The notes below the pieces were generated by a model. It was not told the origin of the DNA, made no database searches, and was given only the letters and a program-made list of their open reading frames with translations. Shown in pieces: positions 1,691-12,469 of a DNA stretch of 32,000 nucleotides. This stretch comes from Promethearchaeota archaeon (GTDB lineage: Archaea > Asgardarchaeota > Lokiarchaeia > Sigyniarchaeales > Promethearchaeaceae). Where the stretch lies: contig JAFGBS010000021.1 in assembly GCA_016933055.1 (NCBI GenBank), positions 92,842 to 124,841 on the forward strand. The letters run 5' to 3'. The stretch's first letter is position 1, and each line of letters begins with the position of its first letter. The position numbers and the translations under genes are program-made.

Positions 1691-3283
1691 ATGAAAAAAC
1701 GTGTCCTACGTAATATTGAAGTCTTGTGCTTAATTTTGATGATTACGGTAATATCTTCATCATTGAATAGAATAACTCCGAATCAGAAGCATGCAGAAAT
1801 AATTTTTTCTCCACCTCAGAATGAGTCAATAGGGGTACCCGTTGAAACCACAATGGAACCCTTTCTGGATCAATACTTAAATGCAGAATCAAGTGGGGAA
1901 TCAATTGAAATTGTTGAATATAATGTGAAAACAGGAGTAGAAGAGACCTATAATGTCAATTTTGATGAAATCCATTCCGTAGGTACTCAAATAGAACCCT
2001 ACGCGGGAAATTTTTATCATCGCTTAATGGAGCAAAAGGTTCAAGAAGGTTCATTTTCGGAGGCGTTGAGTTCTTCGAGTACTCTTGGTCCTGAGGAACT
2101 GACTCTGGTTAACGATACAACCATTTATCCATGGAGTGCTGTAGTGAAAGTGATTTCGACAATTAATGATACACATTCCGCTTGGTGTTCAGGAACATTG
2201 ATCGATTCCAATCACGTTCTCACGGCGGGTCATTGTATCTATGATATCACCGATGGGGGATGGAGATCCGATGTGTACGTTATTCCCGGTAAAAATGGTA
2301 CTGGTAATTCTCTTATGGAAGAACCTTTTGGTCGCGCATATGCTACTCATTTAAGATCAACAAAAGGCTGGACACAAAATCCATCACCCAAGAATGATTG
2401 GGCATTAATCACGTTAGATAGGGATATTGGAGATGAAACTGGGTGGCTAGGAGTAAAAACACTGCCATTAGATCACAATAATTATACTGATATGGTATAT
2501 ACTGCGGGGTACCCTGCGGAAACAAAATCGGGGTACTATATGTATAATAATTCCGGAAGTAGTGGTTGGGTAGATGAATATAATCACTATTATACTTTTT
2601 ATGGGGAAGGTGGTCAAAGTGGAAGTGGGGTATGGACCTATCAAAATGCATCACCGTACATCATTAGTATCTATGCATGGAGTACGCCGATGGGGACTCG
2701 TATAACGCAAGAAAAATTTGACATCTTGAACCTCTGGCTGGAACAAGATGCATCAACAGAACCTCAGGTGGATTTTGAAGTTCTTGGATCCAATAATATT
2801 CTCAAAGCTTTAAATTATATAAAAACGGTCAATACTTTCTTTACCGCATTTCCAATAGCGACTCAAGTCCAAAACCATGGTAATATTGGAGCTGATAAGG
2901 TAACTCTTGGGTATTATTTATCAGAGGATGATATTATCAGTGCAGAAGACTATTTAATTGCAGAAAAAACTATTAGAAATTTGCAGGCGTTTGAATTAAG
3001 GAATGTTGAGAAAAGAGTTAGAATCCCTCTTGGTATTCCGCCAGGATCTTATGAACTTGGATGGATGATAGATCCGAACAACGAAATTGATGAATATTTT
3101 GAAGATAATAATTTCTTTGTTTGTGGTATTCGTCTGTATGTCCAAAACACCTTTTTGGATCCGATATTAACTGATCCTCTCTGGTTAAGTCTTATCATCA
3201 CGGGTATTGTGCTAGTAATCGCAGCACCTGCGGTAATTGTGGTGGTTGTTCTAGTAAAAAAACGAAGAAAGTTACCCAAATAA
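1691..3283 (+). CDS. Membrane-anchored trypsin-like serine protease (S1B, V8/Mpr-like) + CARDB-like domain, paralogue 1
   Basis: N-terminal MKKR plus hydrophobic signal and pro-region. Triad motifs HVLTAGH, NDWAL, GGQSGS. CARDB-like GYYLSED...IP...IPPGSYELGWMIDPNNEIDEYFEDNN. C-terminal TM followed by KKRRK. Confidence 0.9.
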   Translation: MKKRVLRNIEVLCLILMITVISSSLNRITPNQKHAEIIFSPPQNESIGVPVETTMEPFLDQYLNAESSGESIEIVEYNVKTGVEETYNVNFDEIHSVGTQIEPYAGNFYHRLMEQKVQEGSFSEALSSSSTLGPEELTLVNDTTIYPWSAVVKVISTINDTHSAWCSGTLIDSNHVLTAGHCIYDITDGGWRSDVYVIPGKNGTGNSLMEEPFGRAYATHLRSTKGWTQNPSPKNDWALITLDRDIGDETGWLGVKTLPLDHNNYTDMVYTAGYPAETKSGYYMYNNSGSSGWVDEYNHYYTFYGEGGQSGSGVWTYQNASPYIISIYAWSTPMGTRITQEKFDILNLWLEQDASTEPQVDFEVLGSNNILKALNYIKTVNTFFTAFPIATQVQNHGNIGADKVTLGYYLSEDDIISAEDYLIAEKTIRNLQAFELRNVEKRVRIPLGIPPGSYELGWMIDPNNEIDEYFEDNNFFVCGIRLYVQNTFLDPILTDPLWLSLIITGIVLVIAAPAVIVVVVLVKKRRKLPK

Positions 3284-3341
3284 AAGATTATTCTCTTTTC
3301 TCCCATTATTTTCTATATTTTTAATCTTAGGATCTAAAATT

Positions 3342-3402
3342 ATGAGAGAAAAAATTATATATTTTTTCTCTTAGTTTTGGTTAAGATATAGGAGTCAGAA
3401 GT
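3342..3402 (+). promoter_or_regulatory. Promoter + RBS of protease paralogue 2
   Basis: Same three boxes; AAAATTATA starts 52 nt before the ATG. Preceded by a T-rich terminator-like tract (3289-3322). Confidence 0.75.
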
Positions 3403-5013
3403 ATGAAAAAACGTATGTTGCGTAGAATTGTAGGTTTATGGTTAATTCTTATTATGGTTGCAATGTCACCCTCCTTGCCCCTTAGATTTCAAGGGCAGAG
3501 ACATGCCGAGATATTGTTTACTCAATCTCCAATTGAATTGAATTTCATTTCCGCATCGGAAACATTAGAACCTATTTTTGAAAAATACCTCAATCCGGTG
3601 GAAACGAGGCAAGAATCAAATGTGATAGTAGAATACGATGTCCAAACAGGAATGGAAGAAGTATATACCATAAATTACGATGAAATCCATTCTAACATTA
3701 CTCGATTGGAACCTTATGAGGGCAATTACCCCCATTATTTGCAAGGACAGCATATTTACAGCGATTCCATCACAGAAATATTGCATACATCGTCAGAACT
3801 CGGTCCTGACGAACTTACACAAGTTTTCGACACGACGGTATTTCCCTTCAGCAGTGTTGTGAAAATCTATGCAGACTATAATGAGACCCATACAGTGGCG
3901 GGGTCAGGAGCAATGATCGATTCTAATCATGTTCTCACTGCCGGTCATGTAGTTTATGACATCACCCATGGTGGGTGGAGAGAAAATGTGAGAGTGATTC
4001 CCGGTAAAGATGGTCCCTTAGATACTAGCTGGAACGAACCCTACGGTCGTGCATATGCTACGATAATGAGATCAACAGAAGGATGGACACAAGATTCATC
4101 AGCACGACACGATTGGGCAGTGATTACCTTAGATCGGGATATTGGAAATGAGACTGGGTGGTTAGGAGTAACAACCCTACCATTAGATCACAATAATTAT
4201 ACGGATGTGGTATATACTGCAGGTTATCCCGCAACAACCTTATCGGGATATTATATGTATACCGTAAATAAAAGTGGGGGATATTTAATAAATGAGTTTC
4301 AGCACCAATATAATTTTTATGTTGAGGGAGGTCAAAGTGGTAGTTCAGCTTGGACTTACCAAAACTCTTCTCCGTATGTCCTTAGTGTAGTTGCTTATGG
4401 TCCTGAGGGAGGAGGGATTGGTTCGGGAACACGTATAACAACCGAGAAATTCGACTTATTGAACTTATGGTTAGAACAGGATGCATCTGAGGAACCTCAA
4501 GCCGACTTAACGGTTAGTGGATCAAACAATATTCTCGCTGCCTTAGGTTATGTTAATGCGGTAAATATTTTATTTACTAAATTCCCAATTGTTACATCCG
4601 TTCAGAATTATGGGAATATAGGAGTGGAACAAGCAACTCTGGGGTATTATCTCTCAGAGGATGCCAATATAACTCCAGAGGATTATCTAATTGGTACCAC
4701 TACCGTTAGGGATATAAATGTATCGGAATCAAAAATCGTTAATTACACAGCGAAAATACCGCTAAGTGTCCCTCCTGGATTTTACGAAATCGGATGGATT
4801 GTGGATCCGAATAATGAAATTGATGAATTTTTCGAGGATAATAACGTATATGTAAATGGACTTAAACTCCATGTTCATTCCACTATCGTGGATCAAATCT
4901 TAACCGATCCCCTTTGGTTAAGCCTTACAATTACAGGAGTAGCGTTAATACTTATTTTACCTATTGTACTTGTAGTGATTCGAAAGAAGAAACGAAGACC
5001 AAAAACCAAATGA
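3403..5013 (+). CDS. Membrane-anchored S1B serine protease + CARDB-like domain, paralogue 2
   Basis: HVLTAGH, HDWAV, GGQSGS; WIVDPNNEIDEFFEDNN; TM followed by RKKKRR. Colinear with paralogue 1. Confidence 0.9.
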   Translation: MKKRMLRRIVGLWLILIMVAMSPSLPLRFQGQRHAEILFTQSPIELNFISASETLEPIFEKYLNPVETRQESNVIVEYDVQTGMEEVYTINYDEIHSNITRLEPYEGNYPHYLQGQHIYSDSITEILHTSSELGPDELTQVFDTTVFPFSSVVKIYADYNETHTVAGSGAMIDSNHVLTAGHVVYDITHGGWRENVRVIPGKDGPLDTSWNEPYGRAYATIMRSTEGWTQDSSARHDWAVITLDRDIGNETGWLGVTTLPLDHNNYTDVVYTAGYPATTLSGYYMYTVNKSGGYLINEFQHQYNFYVEGGQSGSSAWTYQNSSPYVLSVVAYGPEGGGIGSGTRITTEKFDLLNLWLEQDASEEPQADLTVSGSNNILAALGYVNAVNILFTKFPIVTSVQNYGNIGVEQATLGYYLSEDANITPEDYLIGTTTVRDINVSESKIVNYTAKIPLSVPPGFYEIGWIVDPNNEIDEFFEDNNVYVNGLKLHVHSTIVDQILTDPLWLSLTITGVALILILPIVLVVIRKKKRRPKTK

Positions 5014-5072
5014 ACTCAAACTTTTCAATTTTATCTTTTTTTGATAATACTTTCTCTAAGATAAAAAAAAAT

Positions 5073-5133
5073 ATGAACGTTAAAATTATAAATTCGTACA
5101 CTAAATTTTGGTTAATAGATAGGAGTAGTAATG
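5073..5133 (+). promoter_or_regulatory. Promoter + RBS of protease paralogue 3
   Basis: Same three boxes; the 52-nt spacing points to the second ATG (5134) as the homologous start. Confidence 0.75.
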
Positions 5134-6741
5134 ATGAAAAAACGTACTCTGCGTAGTTTAATTGGGATGTGCACCATTTTCTTGATGATAGGGCTTGTTG
5201 CGTCCATAAACTCAAATCATTTAAAAGAACAATCTCTAACAATCGAATTTGCCCGACCCCAAGATGAAATAAAATATCTCCCCATTGAGACTACATTAAA
5301 GCCTTACTCTGAAGAATTTTGGAATGTTAATTCTATAAATGATAAATCCCAAGATACGGTTGAATACAACATTATAACGGGAATTGAAACACAAATCGCA
5401 ATTGAACCAAACGATTTAATCACTACAATAACCCAATTAGAACCTCATGAGGGATGGTTTCATAATAACGATAGGTGGCATAATAATCCTTCCGCAGATT
5501 CATTTGTGAGTGCTTTGCACACATCACATGTGTTTCCTCCCGATGATCGTGTATTGGTATCGGATACTACCATATATCCCTATAGTAGTATCGTAAAAAT
5601 CTGGGTAGAAGCTGCCAATGGATCGTATTATGTGGGATCTGGAGCGATAATCGATCCCAATCATGTTCTTACGTGTGGTCATATTGCCTACATACATGAT
5701 GCTGGGGGGTGGGTTAGCGAGATGGAAATAACTCCGGGATTGGACGGCACCACGGAACCATATGGTGTTGCGTATGCCACTTTAATGCGATCAACAACAG
5801 GTTGGATTAATGATGAATCCTATCAACATGATTGGGCGGTCATTACCTTAGATCGGGATATTGGGGACTCAACAGGATGGATGGGAGTGAAAACCTTACC
5901 ATTAGATCACATCAATTATACGGATCAAAATTATCTTTATACTGCAGGATATCCCGCAGAAATCAAATCAGGATACTATATGTGGGAGACGCACGATGAT
6001 GAAGCCAACGAGGCAACTGAATATAATATATGGTATCATTTGGATTCAGAAGGAGGTCAAAGTGGAAGTGCAGTGTGGACATATGATGAGGGGGATCCCT
6101 ATATTCTTGGAGTACATGCTTATAGCCAGTTAGGTACCGGTCCCAATTTTGGTACGCGTTTAAACACGGATAAGTTCAACTTATTGGTCAGTTGGTTAGC
6201 TCAAGATGCGTCTTCGGAACAGAAAACGGATTTACAAGTAACTGGTTCTAATAATATTATTGCAGCAATTGGTTCTCCATATGTGTATAAACTTAGTACC
6301 AGAATAAACGTTCTAACATCCATACAGAATATCGGTCTTATAACTGCAGATAAAGTTACCATCGGATTCTATTTTTCCAGTGATACCAATATTACTACTG
6401 AAGATTATTACATTGGAAAAGTTAATATCTATAATGTTCAACCTATGGATACTGTGAACGCTCAATTCCTAAAATTAGCTCCACTGAACATACCTGTGGG
6501 CACTTATAAAATTGGCTGGATAATTGATCCTAATAATGAGTTGGATGAATATAACAAAGAAAATAATGTTTATGTTGGTCCTACCTTATATGTTCGTTCT
6601 TCAGTTATCAGCGACATTTTAGAAGATCCTCTGTGGGTCACGATCATAATTGCAGCTGTAATAATTATTATTGTAGTACCCACGGTGATTGAAATCGCCC
6701 GTAAGCGAAAACGGAAGAGACTTGCTATGGGTCTCAGATAA
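5134..6741 (+). CDS. Membrane-anchored S1B serine protease (probable glutamyl endopeptidase) + CARDB-like domain, paralogue 3
   Basis: VFPPDDRVLVSDTTIYPYSSI resembles the mature N-terminus of Bacillus glutamyl endopeptidases. HVLTCGH, HDWAV, DSEGGQSGS and LGVHAY (S1 His) are present; CARDB; TM followed by RKRKRKR. ORF track starts at 5131. Confidence 0.9.
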   Translation: MKKRTLRSLIGMCTIFLMIGLVASINSNHLKEQSLTIEFARPQDEIKYLPIETTLKPYSEEFWNVNSINDKSQDTVEYNIITGIETQIAIEPNDLITTITQLEPHEGWFHNNDRWHNNPSADSFVSALHTSHVFPPDDRVLVSDTTIYPYSSIVKIWVEAANGSYYVGSGAIIDPNHVLTCGHIAYIHDAGGWVSEMEITPGLDGTTEPYGVAYATLMRSTTGWINDESYQHDWAVITLDRDIGDSTGWMGVKTLPLDHINYTDQNYLYTAGYPAEIKSGYYMWETHDDEANEATEYNIWYHLDSEGGQSGSAVWTYDEGDPYILGVHAYSQLGTGPNFGTRLNTDKFNLLVSWLAQDASSEQKTDLQVTGSNNIIAAIGSPYVYKLSTRINVLTSIQNIGLITADKVTIGFYFSSDTNITTEDYYIGKVNIYNVQPMDTVNAQFLKLAPLNIPVGTYKIGWIIDPNNELDEYNKENNVYVGPTLYVRSSVISDILEDPLWVTIIIAAVIIIIVVPTVIEIARKRKRKRLAMGLR

Positions 6742-6749
6742 CTTGATTC

Positions 6750-6782
6750 TATTTCTCTTTTTTTTTCGTACTTTTTTCTTTA
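6750..6782 (+). terminator. Oligo-T archaeal-type terminator after protease 3
   Basis: TATTTCTCTTTTTTTTCGTACTTTTTTCTT directly after the stop codon. Confidence 0.55.
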
Positions 6783-6832
6783 ACCTTTTAGCTTATTTTA
6801 CAAGCTGAATTTTTACTCAGATACATCACTTT

Positions 6833-7021
6833 GTTCTCCGAAATAACCATCTGGAATAGCCAATCTGCTAGTTGGCTCAATTTTCCTTAAATAGCAACCT
6901 TGGATCTATATATCATAGAACTAAAAAACCCGAACACGGAGGTAAAAAATCGATGAACGATTACATGATGGAAAAAATTAATGAATACAAAATAAAAGAA
7001 AACCGAAACCGAAAATGGTGA
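6833..7021 (+). repeat. Duplicated micro-ORF cassette, copy 1
   Basis: Ungapped hand alignment to 10519-10707 at offset 3686: 13 mismatches in 189 nt. Weaker ungapped similarity (30/52) extends left to 6781/10467. Confidence 0.97.
6953..7021 (+). CDS. 22-aa small protein MNDYMMEKINEYKIKENRNRKW (copy 1)
   Basis: GGAGGT at 6938-6943, 9 nt before the ATG; TATATAT at about 6907-6913; T-rich tract after the TGA; frame conserved in copy 2. Confidence 0.7.
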   Translation: MNDYMMEKINEYKIKENRNRKW

Positions 7022-7308
7022 AATTCTTCTTTTTTCTAATTTAATTCATTTTGTTTTGAATAGTACTTCTGTTAGTTAGATCTTCTATTTTTTTGAGAGT
7101 TTCCAACACAATGATAATTCCTTTCATAAATGTCATTATGAGAAAAGTAATCATTTTGTCAGTGGATTTGTTATGATAATTAAACAAGTGGACTAATTAT
7201 TCACCAATTATGATTAAGAAATTCACTATTTTTGAAATAGAATGATTTCATTTAATAAAGGTTCATCTCTTTTCTTACATAATTCAAAATTGATTTAAGT
7301 TTGAAAGA

Positions 7309-7938
7309 GTGTTCAAAATGGAAGGTCAAGAAAGTTCTGATGAAATAAGAAATGATGTATTTTGGCGAAAAGTAGTATTCCAATATTGGTATATAATCTT
7401 AATATTTCTTTTACTAATTGCCGGAGCCATTACGGGATTCATTCTCACACTGAAATGGTATACTGAAGTGCGTATGATTGTTTCCACAGGAGAAACGGCC
7501 CTATCAACGTTTAATGAGTTTTCCATGCGATCCGCTGTTAGATGGATAGTATTTTTGGTATTATGGGAATTGTTGATCGTATTCTTACCTTTCCTTGCCG
7601 TAGGGGGAGGTATCTTTGCTTTAGTATGGTACGTTATCTTACCAGAGAATCTAAAAGAAGAAATGAAATTGCGATCCAAGAAAGAAGAGGAAATGGAACG
7701 AAAGAAAAAACATAGGAAGAATGGAGATAGCGGAGTATTTGGATTATTGATGTTTGTTGGTTTATGCATCTATATTGCTGTAAATGGAAATTGGCAAACG
7801 GAATTTGGCAGTTTAAATCTGGGATACTTCGTGGACGCTTGGATTAGAGTATTCATTTGGATAATAATTATATTTGTTGTTCCTGCTATCGTGATAACAA
7901 GTATTTGGTTTATTTTACGATATGGAAAAGAAAAATAA
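7309..7938 (+). CDS. Hypothetical multi-pass membrane protein
   Basis: About 4 hydrophobic segments with a charged KKEEEMERKKK loop; alternative ATG at 7318. No family recognised. Confidence 0.75.
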   Translation: MFKMEGQESSDEIRNDVFWRKVVFQYWYIILIFLLLIAGAITGFILTLKWYTEVRMIVSTGETALSTFNEFSMRSAVRWIVFLVLWELLIVFLPFLAVGGGIFALVWYVILPENLKEEMKLRSKKEEEMERKKKHRKNGDSGVFGLLMFVGLCIYIAVNGNWQTEFGSLNLGYFVDAWIRVFIWIIIIFVVPAIVITSIWFILRYGKEK

Positions 7939-8004
7939 ATCGATTTTACCCTTTTTTTTAATTTTTACATGACATTATAATAATTCTCTACATTCGATTG
8001 CCAC

Positions 8005-8514
8005 TTAATTCTTCTTTAGCATGGTTAAGAAATGTGTTAATTTATCAGAAAATTCCACGGCATGATCCTCAAAAATGAAAATTCTATTCCTCTTATCTCC
8101 CGATTGTTCCGTAATTACTAAGTACTTATCCCCTTTGCTTGTGTTTTTTATTTCAAAATAATAGATCCGTGCCCCTGCATGTAATTTCGAATCATTTCCT
8201 TTAAATTTGGAACCATAATCCTTGGATTTCCGATCAAATCCTTTGGACTTGGGATCTGGTTTGTGATCAAATTTCAGTTTTTTCTCTATCTTCAAATCTG
8301 CTGGAACTTTATCTAACACTTTGAGATTAGTTCCATTGAAAAATTTCCCTTTTTGCACAATTTTGCAGGAAATGATATCTCCTTCTTTCATTTTCGTCCC
8401 AATGTCTTCTTTCTCGAAAAATCCTACTGAATTATCGCATAATTTGAGTTGTAAGTATTTTTCTCCGTTTTTTCTCTCGCGAATCTCGACTTTTTCTACT
8501 TTATAATTACTCAC
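8005..8514 (-). CDS. PUR (PurA/DUF3276-like) single-stranded nucleic-acid-binding domain protein with an N-terminal OB-like domain
   Basis: C-terminal RIYYFEIKNTSKGDKYLVITEQ...RNRIFIFEDHAVEFSDKL matches the PUR-repeat pattern. N-terminal KNGEKYLQLKLCD...KEGDII resembles an OB fold. Confidence 0.7.
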   Translation of the reverse strand: MSNYKVEKVEIRERKNGEKYLQLKLCDNSVGFFEKEDIGTKMKEGDIISCKIVQKGKFFNGTNLKVLDKVPADLKIEKKLKFDHKPDPKSKGFDRKSKDYGSKFKGNDSKLHAGARIYYFEIKNTSKGDKYLVITEQSGDKRNRIFIFEDHAVEFSDKLTHFLTMLKKN

Positions 8515-8668
8515 TTTCTAAATCACCCAAAAATATATCTAGATATAGTCTAACGGCTATCTAAGAAGAAAAACTTTCGGAAAAAGTGAGTCATAATAGT
8601 CAAATGGTCATAGATTAAACACTGTGAACTTAAAATGTGCAGAGTTCATTTCATCCATGGAGGAGAAA

Positions 8669-8764
8669 ATGCAAGTAAAACTTAGAACAGTACTTCATGT
8701 TCTATTCGATGGTTCTGCTAATAGAATTCCAAAATTGGTGTACTTTCATATTAGTTTGTTTTGA
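8669..8764 (+). CDS. Putative 31-aa small protein MQVKLRTVLHVLFDGSANRIPKLVYFHISLF
   Basis: Strong GGAGGAG ending 3 nt before the ATG. No homology evidence. Confidence 0.25.
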   Translation: MQVKLRTVLHVLFDGSANRIPKLVYFHISLF

Positions 8765-8839
8765 TTAAAGGTAGCGGGATTCGGTCATCGATCAATGGAA
8801 ATTTTATTTACTTTAGATTTGTTAAATTATTTGATCCTC

Positions 8840-9652
8840 ATGGAAGGTTTAGATACTTATACGATTAAAGAATTTTCGAAAGTACGGCAAATTTTGAGTG
8901 ACGTCTATGAAGTTTCTATCAAAAAAACCTCGGTTATCGGCTTGATTGAACTAGATGTTACAACAGCTCGTCACCGAATGCGAACATTTGAATCGGAGAC
9001 AGGGAAAAAATTATCATTCACGGGTTGGTTAATCAAATGCATTTCGCAAGCCGTGAGTGAACATAAAGAAGTCCACGCCTATCGAGTAAAGAAAAACAAA
9101 ATAATCGTATTTGATAATGTGCATGTGAGTGTAATGGTGGAAAGGACCACAAGTTCGGGTATAAAAGTTCCAATCACTTATGTTATTACTTCAGCTAACA
9201 CCAAATCCGTCATGGAAATTACTGATGAAATAAGACAAGCTCAACAGCGAAAAATTGAAGAAAAGAATCAATTCGTGGCAGGCACCCCAAATTTCTTTGT
9301 TAAATTATACTCTCTCGTTCCGAGATTTCTGCGAAGAAGAATAATTCGAAAAAAATTATCAGATCCTTGGTTTTATATTAAAAATGCAGGAACAGTCGGT
9401 GTTACTGCTATCGGAATGTTTGGGAAAAATATTGCAGGGTGGGCGATACCCTTCACTTCTAGCACTCTAAATGTAGCAGTAGGGGGAATGAAAAGTAAGC
9501 CAGAACTGGTGGATGGTAATCTTATTGATAGGGAATTTCTGAATTTGACCATCCAAATCGATCACACCTTGGTAGATGGAGCTCCGGCTACTCGATTTGT
9601 CTCTAGGTTGGTAGAATTGGTGGAATCTGGTTTTGGTTGCTATCAAATTTAA
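8840..9652 (+). CDS. Stand-alone 2-oxoacid dehydrogenase acyltransferase (E2) catalytic domain protein
   Basis: IELDVT, KLSFTGWLIKCISQA, GTVGVTAIG, LNVAVGG and DHTLVDGAPATRF (HxxxDG). No lipoyl or E3-binding domain. ORF track starts at 8795; ATG 8840 is the more likely start. Confidence 0.88.
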   Translation: MEGLDTYTIKEFSKVRQILSDVYEVSIKKTSVIGLIELDVTTARHRMRTFESETGKKLSFTGWLIKCISQAVSEHKEVHAYRVKKNKIIVFDNVHVSVMVERTTSSGIKVPITYVITSANTKSVMEITDEIRQAQQRKIEEKNQFVAGTPNFFVKLYSLVPRFLRRRIIRKKLSDPWFYIKNAGTVGVTAIGMFGKNIAGWAIPFTSSTLNVAVGGMKSKPELVDGNLIDREFLNLTIQIDHTLVDGAPATRFVSRLVELVESGFGCYQI

Positions 9653-9737
9653 TAAATGTGTAATTTAGCTTGAAAGATATAGATGGAACTTAAGAATCAA
9701 ATATTCGAATGGAATTAATGTCCTCGACGGTCTTTAG

Positions 9738-10454
9738 ATGAAAAAATATTTTCTATTTGTTCTATCTCTTTTCGTTTTAGGGGTACTAACTCTGACTGGA
9801 TATGAAGTAAAAGCATTAAATTATTCTCCTGGCGTTGAAGTAGGTGATGTGTTGATATGGGAGACGCAGGAAGACCTCCACATTGCTCATACGGAACCTA
9901 ATATATGGTACACGAAACACGTAATTATCGCAATCAATGACGTGAATGAGAATACAACATGGGTCCAAGCTAATACCTTTTATTCGGAAGATAACATAGA
10001 TTATGAACCCACTGGAGAAAATATAACTTGTGGTGTGTTAGAGGATTATATATTACAGCACAGTGTCTATGAAATATGGATCAATAAGTACTATTATATC
10101 GTACCGGGGACTAAAATAGGGGATTACAGCGAAATCATCCAAGATGCGCATGTGGGAGATGAATATAATGTATACATCCTCCAATTTGGATACGGATTGA
10201 ACCTTCAGTATCATGATGATGAGGAAATTTTGTTCCAACAATCGATATACACAAAACAAGGAATATTAGAAAGGTTAAAGATAAATTATTATGACACAAC
10301 AGTTACCTCTCTTCTGCTTTCAATTAATGGAACAAAATATAGATACCAAATACCGGGATACCACTTAATTTTATTCCTTGGCATCATTCTAGTCGCAATA
10401 ACAGGACTTGTTATATGTGTGCACTATTTCCGTAAAGAAAACTTGGCAAGTTAA
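9738..10454 (+). CDS. Secreted/surface protein with Loki-CTERM-like C-terminal anchor
   Basis: Signal peptide MKKYFLFVLSLFVLGVL; C-terminal IPGY + hydrophobic helix + RK tail. Confidence 0.8.
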   Translation: MKKYFLFVLSLFVLGVLTLTGYEVKALNYSPGVEVGDVLIWETQEDLHIAHTEPNIWYTKHVIIAINDVNENTTWVQANTFYSEDNIDYEPTGENITCGVLEDYILQHSVYEIWINKYYYIVPGTKIGDYSEIIQDAHVGDEYNVYILQFGYGLNLQYHDDEEILFQQSIYTKQGILERLKINYYDTTVTSLLLSINGTKYRYQIPGYHLILFLGIILVAITGLVICVHYFRKENLAS

Positions 10455-10518
10455 ATAAAAGTCATTTAACCATCTAGCTAATCCACCTAACTCTTTCCTT
10501 ACTTGGATTCGATCCTTC

Positions 10519-10707
10519 GTTCTTCGAAATAACCATCTGGAATAGTTAATCTGCTAGATGGCTCAATTTTCCTTATATAGCAACCTTGGATCTATATATC
10601 ATAGAACTAAAAAACACTACCACGGAGGTAAAAAAACAATGAACGATTACATGATGGAAAAAATTAATGAATACAAAATAAGAGAAAACCAAAACCGAAA
10701 ATGGTAA
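10519..10707 (+). repeat. Duplicated micro-ORF cassette, copy 2
   Basis: About 93% identical to 6833-7021 without indels (hand alignment). Confidence 0.97.
10639..10707 (+). CDS. 22-aa small protein MNDYMMEKINEYKIRENQNRKW (copy 2)
   Basis: GGAGGT at 10624-10629, ATG at 10639, TAA stop, followed by TTATTTTTACTTTCTTCTTCTTTTTT. Confidence 0.7.
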   Translation: MNDYMMEKINEYKIRENQNRKW

Positions 10708-11056
10708 GTTATTTTTACTTTCTTCTTCTTTTTTGCATTAACAACGCACTTACTTTCTTGAAATAAGGATTCAAACTCAAAGTCATATACTAATTGTTGA
10801 ATTTTGTCTTTGCCCTACTACGTACAAAAAACTACGCAAAAAGCCATCTCGAGATAGATCTTGGATAACATTATTTACTTTGGTAGTTTTTTCCTCACCC
10901 AAGAGTTGAAAATGCTACGAATGCCTTTTCTTTAACTGTTCGATGTCCGATAGATCGTTACACTCAGATAAACTGATGCAATTCACTTCTTTAAGAAGTT
11001 TAAGTTCGCAATCCGATCGATGGGTTATTCGTATCATTTTTCCTTGTTCTTTTTCT

Positions 11057-12469
11057 TCACTTTTGATATAACTCAGGATGTTCCGTGTGTATTGGTATTA
11101 CATGATTTGGACGAACATCTCGAATTATTTGATGAATTTCCTTGCCTGAGGCGTGCCCAGATGCATGTGCATGATATTCTGGAATGCCAAATCGATTTAA
11201 CCAGTTAGATTTGCGCTCTTCATCGAGCTCCATATCATCGGTAAATGGTTCACATGAGGATTTAATCCAAATGGCACCTTTGGGTTGAATATCAATTAAA
11301 TGTTTAATTTCCCACATGTTCATCGAAACTACATAGTGTTGTGGATTTTCAACGAGATCTCGAACTGTAATTGCATTTTCCCGATGGATGAAATCTTGCT
11401 CCCATTTGAAATAATCTTTCGATATTTGATGATCCGTGCAACCATCCTTGCATAGTAGCCCCCATCCCTTATTTGGAACTAGTATTTTCACTTCATCTAT
11501 CGCAAACGGACTGATATCACCCAATAGTTCTATAAGGTATGCTAATTTTAAATTAACTGCGAACTGTCGTTGATTATCTCGTGCAGAGTCATATATCGAT
11601 TTCACTCGATCCAAATCTCGAATGGGATGTTCTACAAACACTAAACCTTGGTTGTTGGAGACTAATTTGCTGATTTCTTCCCGGACTTTCAATTCGCCAA
11701 TAGAATGCATATCTTTAATTCGTGTTCCTTCCATCAATAACCATTCTGGATTTGCAGCTTTTACTTTCTCGACGAAAGCGTGACTATATTCTCCATGATA
11801 TCCGTGAAAGCGAATATCTCCGCTATAAGCTAAATTCCCCTCGTCGCTATAAATGATAAATCCACAAGCACCAGGTAAGGAATGATCCACCAGACAGCAT
11901 TCTATTTCCAGAGAGCCTATCTTTACTTTACCAACATTCGTTCCGGAACACGAGTCCATAATATGAAAGGTACGGTCATGCACATATTCTCCGTGTTTAC
12001 GGTCGATTCGAGACCACTCTCCTTTTTTATTTATGTAGTGTTTATAGGTTTCACATACAGTTACCAAATCCTTAAAACCCCCACTACCAGTTTCTTCTAA
12101 TGCTTGCAATATGAGTTTGGTGGCGTGAGTACAATAAATTGGAATATCCCAACGGAGAAAATGGATATATTGCGCATGATCTGCATGAGCATGGGATAAA
12201 AATAACGCATCCACAGAGCGATCCTCTTTTGGTCGACCCATATGCTCGACATAATCTTCCCGATAGATTCCTTTAATATCTGGAAGCAGGCCCATTTCGA
12301 AAAAATCCTTTAATCCATCACATTTTCGGGGTTGCAGGAATTCGGAAAAATACATGCCAGTTGTGTTAAAACTCATTCCAAAATCCATCAAAATTCTGGT
12401 CCCTTTATGCTCGATAAGTACCTTATTCCCCCCGATCTCATTTCTTCCTCCTAAAACGTCGATCTTCAT
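11057..12469 (-). CDS. RNase J-like MBL/beta-CASP nuclease
   Basis: GGRNEIGGN, MDFG, HAHADH, VDHS, YSGDIRFHG, SSCEP, HASGHA and VIPIHTE. Start most likely MKIDVLGG (12469); ORF track gives 12502. Confidence 0.88.
   Translation of the reverse strand: MKIDVLGGRNEIGGNKVLIEHKGTRILMDFGMSFNTTGMYFSEFLQPRKCDGLKDFFEMGLLPDIKGIYREDYVEHMGRPKEDRSVDALFLSHAHADHAQYIHFLRWDIPIYCTHATKLILQALEETGSGGFKDLVTVCETYKHYINKKGEWSRIDRKHGEYVHDRTFHIMDSCSGTNVGKVKIGSLEIECCLVDHSLPGACGFIIYSDEGNLAYSGDIRFHGYHGEYSHAFVEKVKAANPEWLLMEGTRIKDMHSIGELKVREEISKLVSNNQGLVFVEHPIRDLDRVKSIYDSARDNQRQFAVNLKLAYLIELLGDISPFAIDEVKILVPNKGWGLLCKDGCTDHQISKDYFKWEQDFIHRENAITVRDLVENPQHYVVSMNMWEIKHLIDIQPKGAIWIKSSCEPFTDDMELDEERKSNWLNRFGIPEYHAHASGHASGKEIHQIIRDVRPNHVIPIHTEHPELYQK

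Follow-up and report, generated by a model that had tools for sequence, protein, structure and literature searches.

What is encoded by two nearly identical segments, each holding an open reading frame (ORF) of only 22 codons, in the genome of a Loki-type archaeon? The segments lie in a 32,000-nucleotide (nt) stretch (referred to here as the window; contig C30, 92842-124841) of the source genome, Promethearchaeota archaeon GCA_016933055.1 (G000). A sequence-only reading had taken them for separately regulated copies of a micropeptide gene overlooked by ORF calling, their products being small charged peptides of a family not described before, which has its own regulation. The core of that proposal was upheld, and was strengthened by further copies and by a coding signal. 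The repeat can be regarded with considerable confidence as an undescribed, lineage-restricted micropeptide gene family with a dedicated, strongly conserved promoter region, a judgement that takes in gene anatomy as well as coding status; the ORF itself has very probably been kept by selection as protein-coding sequence.

For the two cassettes of the window (copies A and B), every sequence item of the earlier description was present in the DNA. Between window positions 6833-7021 and 10519-10707, a gap-free alignment shows exactly 13 mismatches over 189 nt. Each cassette contains 22 codons plus a stop (6953-7021 and 10639-10707), preceded by GGAGGT (6938-6943 and 10624-10629), which lies 9 nt 5' of the ATGs at 6953 and 10639, and by TATATAT (at 6907 and 10593), 46 nt 5' of each ATG. 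The two ORFs differ in three respects (K15R, R18Q and TGA/TAA), identity falls to ~35% directly 3' of the stop codon, and T-runs follow at 7030-7035 in copy A and at 10712-10716 and 10729-10734 in copy B. The extent of the cassette needed revision: the segments 6833-7021 and 10519-10707 stand, and the unit is longer than described, with weaker similarity upstream of the block that reaches a 17-nt distal motif at 6779-6795 and 10465-10481. The A/B repeat is far beyond chance, because the unit recurs three more times in G000 and in other genomes. The features of the two copies, including the Shine-Dalgarno (SD) sequences, are as follows.

6779..6795, plus strand: copy A distal motif, TTTAACCTTTTAGCTTA (family consensus TTTAACCAnTTAGCTTA)
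6833..6913, plus strand: copy A core upstream block, including GTTCTCCGAAATAACCA
6858-6877, plus strand: copy A inverted repeat AGCCAA-N8-TTGGCT, within the core block
6887-6893, plus strand: copy A candidate TATA box, (C)TTAAATA, from comparison with tRNA promoters
6902-6913, plus strand: copy A AT-rich element, GGATCTATATAT, within the core block
6938..6943, plus strand: copy A SD sequence GGAGGT, 9 nt before the ATG
6953..7021, plus strand: copy A ORF, MNDYMMEKINEYKIKENRNRKW plus TGA
7030..7035, plus strand: copy A oligo-T tract, candidate archaeal terminator (termination presumed)
10465..10481, plus strand: copy B distal motif, TTTAACCATCTAGCTAA
10519..10599, plus strand: copy B core upstream block, including GGATCTATATAT
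10544-10563, plus strand: copy B degenerate inverted repeat, within the core block
10573-10579, plus strand: copy B TTATATA, within the core block
10624..10629, plus strand: copy B SD sequence GGAGGT
10639..10707, plus strand: copy B ORF, MNDYMMEKINEYKIRENQNRKW plus TAA
10712..10734, plus strand: copy B oligo-T tracts (T5, T6) as candidate terminator, ahead of a convergent gene

Family size and the coding signal of the ORF

A DNA search of the whole G000 assembly gave three more copies, for a total of five intact ones, and the genome also has one promoter-only relic. The intact copies besides A and B are copy C on contig C28 (MNDYMMEKIQEFEKKIREHRKF) and copies D and E, a tandem pair on C32 (MNSYMLEKQVEQKLKESRNRKW and MNDYIIEKIAEYKRNEIRKTKW). 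The sole other genome of the genus among those searched, a metagenome-assembled genome (G001), holds four intact copies (the tandem pair F and G, and the single copies I and J) as well as one decayed remnant, H. The genome-wide count thus takes the family beyond the two copies first seen, to 5 in G000 and 4 in G001. Public metagenome contigs were scanned with a pattern made from the upstream block alone, the ORF being excluded; four contigs matched, and five further intact ORFs were found on them. Downstream sequence was present in three of the four, each of which has an intact family ORF at the expected distance, and two of these three carry a tandem second ORF copy. Conserved DNA with a broken ORF had been named as the outcome that would speak against a peptide gene, and this upstream-only search gave intact in-frame ORFs in all three cases. 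Among the 161 genomes of the class covered by the class-wide searches, a 14-member profile had matches in G000 and G001 only, and the upstream-block pattern was found in 2, both of the same genus, with zero matches for a reversed-pattern control. An SD plus ATG pattern was also scanned against genome contigs and was set aside as too loose, since its matches were mostly bacterial chance ones. The repeat is a paralogous family of 4-5 copies per genome, confined to one genus.

For examination of the coding status, 14 intact ORFs drawn from at least four genomes or contigs were available; entropy, pN/pS (nonsynonymous over synonymous differences), frame and composition analyses were carried out on 13, with copy J left out. 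All 14, including the tandem second copies, have an ATG and an SD sequence placed 6-11 nt before the start (GGAGGT in 13, GGAGAT in one). Their length is 22-23 codons, and exactly 22 from the conserved MN start in 13; copy J has one extra Met codon and one whole-codon deletion, and indels across the family are of whole codons only. The position of the stop is constant while the codon used for it varies (TAA 8, TAG 3 and TGA 2 among the 13 ORFs). Summed column entropy for codon positions 1, 2 and 3 is 13.2, 14.2 and 24.0, respectively, making the third position the most variable. No copy of the 13 has a stop in the proposed frame and both other sense frames are stopped in every one, the composition-based chance of a 21-codon open frame being ~0.14 per copy. 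The frame is kept and pN is far below pS in diverged pairs (pN/pS of 0.11/0.92 for E-F, 0.08/0.76 for La-Lb and 0.06/0.45 for E-La), in agreement with the selection and frame conservation expected of a peptide gene. Tandem second copies (E, F, Lb and O) have kept the SD sequence and the ORF, and the upstream block is absent from them.

Several observations set limits to the coding evidence. The A-B pair shows two nonsynonymous and zero synonymous changes, and is uninformative on selection. The family-wide pN/pS is 0.46, the peptide being fast-evolving between subfamilies. Between distant paralogs, the upstream DNA is conserved at least as strongly as the ORF, and therefore part of the conservation is not protein-related.

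The encoded peptides are strongly hydrophilic, with a grand average of hydropathy (GRAVY) of -1.2 to -2.1, a net charge of +1 to +4 and 40-50% charged residues; Gly, Pro and Cys do not occur in the 286 residues of the 13 ORFs. They are acidic and hydrophobic over the N-terminal half (MNDYMMEK-I--E-Y), and basic over the C-terminal half, which has an aromatic end (R-RKW). Y4 is invariant, E7 and K8 are nearly invariant, and the final residue is aromatic in 12 of 13. The composition fits a helix, and the product is probably a very hydrophilic cytoplasmic peptide lacking a signal peptide. A specifically amphipathic helix was considered and found no support, as the hydrophobic moment exceeded that of shuffled sequences inconsistently across members. 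Rejected was a precursor of a ribosomally synthesized and post-translationally modified peptide, there being no conserved neighbours and, in the 286 residues, 0 Cys, 4 Ser and 6 Thr. None of the 14 members matched a Pfam-A family at E up to 10. Best matches among PDB chains had E of 0.6-1.0 over 8-11 residues, so that no structure was matched; Rfam 15 gave no match at E up to 1 for window positions 6000-11500, and a literature search on Asgard small proteins gave nothing on the micropeptide family.

These properties bear on the idea of a type I toxin-antitoxin-like repeat of the Ldr or Ibs/Sib type, in which an antisense RNA represses a toxic peptide. It would suit such a system that the intergenic repeats occur in several copies, some of them in tandem, that each combines a tiny ORF with conserved regulatory flanks, and that copies are present or absent between close genomes. 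The peptide, however, is strongly hydrophilic and has no membrane segment, unlike the known toxins of this type, and from sequence (RNAalifold, minus strand) neither an antisense promoter nor a structured antisense RNA was seen. A toxin of this type is scarcely credible.

The conserved upstream region and a candidate regulator

For the promoter region, 11 copies were aligned over ~190 nt, and conservation of this region equals that of the ORF. The order of elements is the distal motif TTTAACCAnTTAGCTTA, a ~45-nt spacer, GTTCTCCGAAATAACCA, TAGCCAATCTGCTAGTTGGCTC (the AGCCAA-N8-TTGGCT inverted repeat), AATTTTCTTTAAATA, GGATCTATATA and the SD sequence, with the distal motif at a constant distance in 11 of 11 promoter copies. 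A profile of the core block identified five copies in G000 (nhmmer E of 5e-24 to 1.7e-14), the relic on contig C19 being the only one without an ORF, and no further significant match in that genome. The palindrome was found at no other G000 promoter and, within that genome, is unique to the cassettes. A sequence within the block, TAGCCAATCT (window 6856-6866), resembles the eukaryotic CCAAT-box consensus.

In the tRNA genes of G000, TTTAAAT lies ~30-40 nt before the mature 5' end, with an A-rich element in front of it. Because it fits this tRNA promoter consensus, TTTAAATA, ~63 nt before the ATG, is likely the TATA box and a better candidate than TATATAT; the latter, at -46, is more likely an AT-rich proximal or initiator region. 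Transcription would then start ~35 nt before the ATG. The conserved block lies 5' of the best TATA candidate and hence is probably not co-transcribed with the ORF.

This arrangement is relevant to a second alternative, a non-coding or dual-function small RNA, for which the ORF would be incidental or secondary and the conservation would reflect RNA function. Upstream DNA as well conserved as the ORF, and a predicted transcript of only ~115 nt, could be read in this way. So could TCTCCG at the 5' edge of the block (6835-6840), which is complementary to CGGAGG overlapping the SD sequence (6936-6941), single-sided changes in the two being mostly wobble-compatible. For such pairing to be relevant, one transcript would have to include both block and ORF, and the position of the TATA candidate argues against this. 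Nor was there any Rfam match; with RNAalifold, run on nine copies, energies were weak and covariation terms positive, and neither strand had support from covariation. A pure RNA gene would, moreover, not predict the third-position excess, the whole-codon indels, the fixed stop position, the low pN/pS or the stops in the other sense frames. We consider an RNA gene unlikely.

A minus-strand ORF of 20 codons (MVISEN...IS; window 6780-6852 and 10466-10538) extends over the spacer that separates the block from the distal motif. Five of seven copies have it open; in C and in the C19 relic it is interrupted, and differences in its conserved part, as read by eye from the alignment rather than computed, are mostly nonsynonymous. 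It was judged spurious, and probably arises from the fixed spacing of two conserved DNA motifs.

Outside the cassettes, the exact consensus distal motif occurs at one G000 site, 45 nt upstream of an ArsR/HTH_5 gene on contig C11; the chance expectation for an exact match elsewhere in the genome is 0.01-0.02. This winged-helix gene (151 amino acids (aa), minus strand, C11:94744-95196) is divergent from a 340-aa bactofilin plus zinc-ribbon gene, the pair occupying C11:94744-96426 (locus L064:745-2424). The intergenic region shared by the two also contains AACCATC and CAATTTnCTTTAAATA, in an arrangement loosely similar to that of the cassettes, and is the best non-cassette match of the full promoter profile in the genome. 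In G001, the ortholog of the ArsR gene has retained AACCATATAGCTAAA at the same place, in inverted orientation. Telling against a connection, comparison of the ArsR-gene promoter with the whole cassette promoter gave no significant similarity (nhmmer E 0.33), and the distal motif at the G000 ArsR gene is opposite in orientation. Homology of the whole promoter to the C11 region was rejected on the same E value; taken singly, the 17-nt distal motif is the one element unlikely to occur by chance. The ArsR-type protein is put forward as a putative regulator of the cassettes, and as a lead only. Derivation of the peptide from the 5' end of the bactofilin-like gene was also tried, and was rejected at an hhalign probability of 0.3%.

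Gene neighbourhood, gain and loss of copies

The window genes that adjoin the cassettes are listed below.

1691-6741, plus strand: three tandem paralogous trypsin-like protease genes
7309-7938, plus strand: ORF for a 209-aa multi-pass membrane protein, between copy A and the PUR-like gene
8005-8514, minus strand: gene for a 169-aa protein with a C-terminal match to DUF3276 (PUR-like, nucleic-acid-binding)

The proteases have a CARDB domain, a signal-like N terminus and a C-terminal transmembrane (TM) anchor with a basic tail; the syntenic G001 locus has two such genes. The 209-aa membrane protein has no significant family match; a 147-aa ORF antisense to it and overlapping it looks spurious. 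Both cassettes had been placed just after genes for C-terminally anchored surface proteins. Signal-like N termini were indeed seen in the proteins upstream of A and B, as was, at the C terminus, a TM helix with a basic tail, but the functional link was not borne out, and no NCBIfam match to a Loki-CTERM model was found for these proteins. The neighbours of copies C and D/E are unlike those of A and B. In G001 (C44) and on metagenome contig L079, proteases are followed by a tandem cassette pair on the opposite strand and then by a PUR-like DUF3276 gene, these neighbours being homologous to the window genes at 1691-6741 and 8005-8514. The interval from the proteases to the PUR-like gene is an inherited location common to three lineages; on sequence comparison, the position beside the protease genes is inherited and has been rearranged in G000. 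Since copies C and D/E have other neighbours and the interval is inherited, the link to surface proteins is one of synteny, not of function. DUF3276 homologs directly adjoin the tandem cassette pairs in G001:C44 and contig L079, and the DUF3276 protein could be either a neighbour by descent or a functional partner.

What lies downstream bears on a third alternative, a leader peptide or upstream ORF that would control a downstream gene by attenuation or ribosome stalling. With 22 codons, a strong SD sequence and a T-rich tract after the stop, the cassette looks like bacterial leader peptides, and its conserved C terminus runs from basic residues to an aromatic residue and the stop. The downstream genes, however, vary by copy, the one after B being convergent and C lying between unrelated genes; similarity ends at the stop codon, oligo-T tracts follow it, and neither a run of codons for a single amino acid nor a set of alternative helices was found. 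A leader function is, on this evidence, very improbable.

Loss of a copy could be followed at one syntenic locus that is shared by copy C, metagenome copy K and remnant H. In G001, ~190 nt have been deleted there, with the start codon, SD sequence, block and distal motif gone, and the remaining ORF body has acquired a TAA stop along with numerous nonsynonymous changes, one of them to proline; in a third lineage, copy K, the gene at this locus is intact. Remnant H is a natural knockout, in which start codon and promoter were lost and a stop was gained. At another place, the flanks of cassette J of G001 stand 63 nt apart in G000. Whole cassettes have been gained or lost between sister species.

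The promoter-only relic on C19 (12763-13120; locus L063:1264-1621) has the distal motif, the block and the TATA element, without SD sequence or ORF, and is joined to the 3' portion of a PIN-like gene, whose counterpart in G001 (on C3) is intact. The PIN-like fragment is split by a GC-rich insertion of ~170 nt (52% GC versus 35% for the genome), which has one partial relative, at C2:4768-4858, and a modest fold z-score of -1.9. An Rfam search of the relic region gave no match.

Variation of this kind raises the possibility that the unit is a mobile or recombination-prone promoter element with the ORF as its passenger. A promoter-only copy fused to a truncated gene, the presence of cassette J in G001 between flanks 63 nt apart in G000, and the variable number and position of copies would all be in keeping with it. 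Inverted repeats and target-site duplications were looked for at the junctions of cassette J and of the locus-C deletion, and none were found, the former including terminal ones; copies number only 5-6 per genome, tandem second copies keep SD sequence and ORF without the block, and the ORF is under purifying selection. A mobile promoter element appears quite improbable.

Proposed mode of action and known systems

In the proposed model, each copy would be a self-contained small gene. Its promoter would consist of TTTAAATA plus the AT-rich proximal element, its leader of ~35 nt would carry the strong SD sequence, and the ORF of 22 codons would be followed by an oligo-T terminator or by a second tandem copy. 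Because all the copies have in common a promoter-upstream region not found elsewhere, one dedicated DNA-binding regulator may turn them on at the same time; a candidate would be the ArsR-type protein, since the distal motif is present in its own promoter. Because the gene has been multiplied, the peptide may bind to a larger partner (protein or nucleic acid) and act on it in stoichiometric amounts, and not catalytically. This mode of action, by a soluble and co-regulated peptide, is a tentative proposal. It is more speculative, and rather doubtful, that the cassettes form a young genus-specific micropeptide regulon, with one regulator (possibly of ArsR type) acting on 4-5 dispersed or tandem copies and the peptide modulating a cellular machine.

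Genes of 69 nt fall below the standard cut-off of gene callers and are, for this reason, absent from Asgard annotations and protein databases; comparative sequence evidence alone can establish such a micro-gene with high confidence. The set of putatively co-regulated promoters, together with a candidate regulator, could be used for studies of transcription control in Loki-type archaea. The family is narrow, being limited to one genus, and its broader importance hinges on the partner and the inducing condition. If the regulon reading is true, the family would offer a tractable case of micro-gene birth and turnover in the closest prokaryotic relatives of eukaryotes, because the ORF decays after promoter loss and whole cassettes are gained or lost between sister species.

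Several known systems invite comparison. The enterobacterial LDR/ldr and QUAD/Sib-Ibs loci were first noticed as DNA repeats, and the cassettes, compared with them by description, are likewise short, partly tandem intergenic repeats with their own promoter and a tiny ORF. Type I toxins of the LDR/Ibs kind are hydrophobic membrane peptides under antisense RNA control, whereas the micropeptide is highly charged, and neither a membrane segment nor a sign of an antisense RNA was seen for it. The trpL, thrL and tnaC leader peptides are similar in size, in the strong ribosome-binding site and in the T-rich tract after the stop. Unlike these, the cassettes have no conserved downstream gene, regulatory codon run or alternative RNA helices, and their copies end at candidate terminators or face convergent genes.

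By analogy, Methanosarcina mazei offers the closest precedents in its stand-alone small proteins, one of which is sP26. In that archaeon, 314 unannotated translated small ORFs have been described (PMC11456600), and sP26, of 23 aa, binds and enhances glutamine synthetase (bioRxiv 10.1101/2020.05.06.080432). The sequences of sP26 and the micropeptide are not similar, and whereas expression and partner have been shown for sP26, the family described here is known from its sequence. The cassettes also differ in their long, exclusive promoter-upstream block and in their restriction to one Asgard genus; to our knowledge, sP26 is not a multicopy family. Like sP26, however, the micropeptide would be the product of a stand-alone archaeal gene of ~22-23 residues that was overlooked by annotation and is under condition-specific (here putative) control, and, being too small for an enzyme, it presumably acts through a larger partner.

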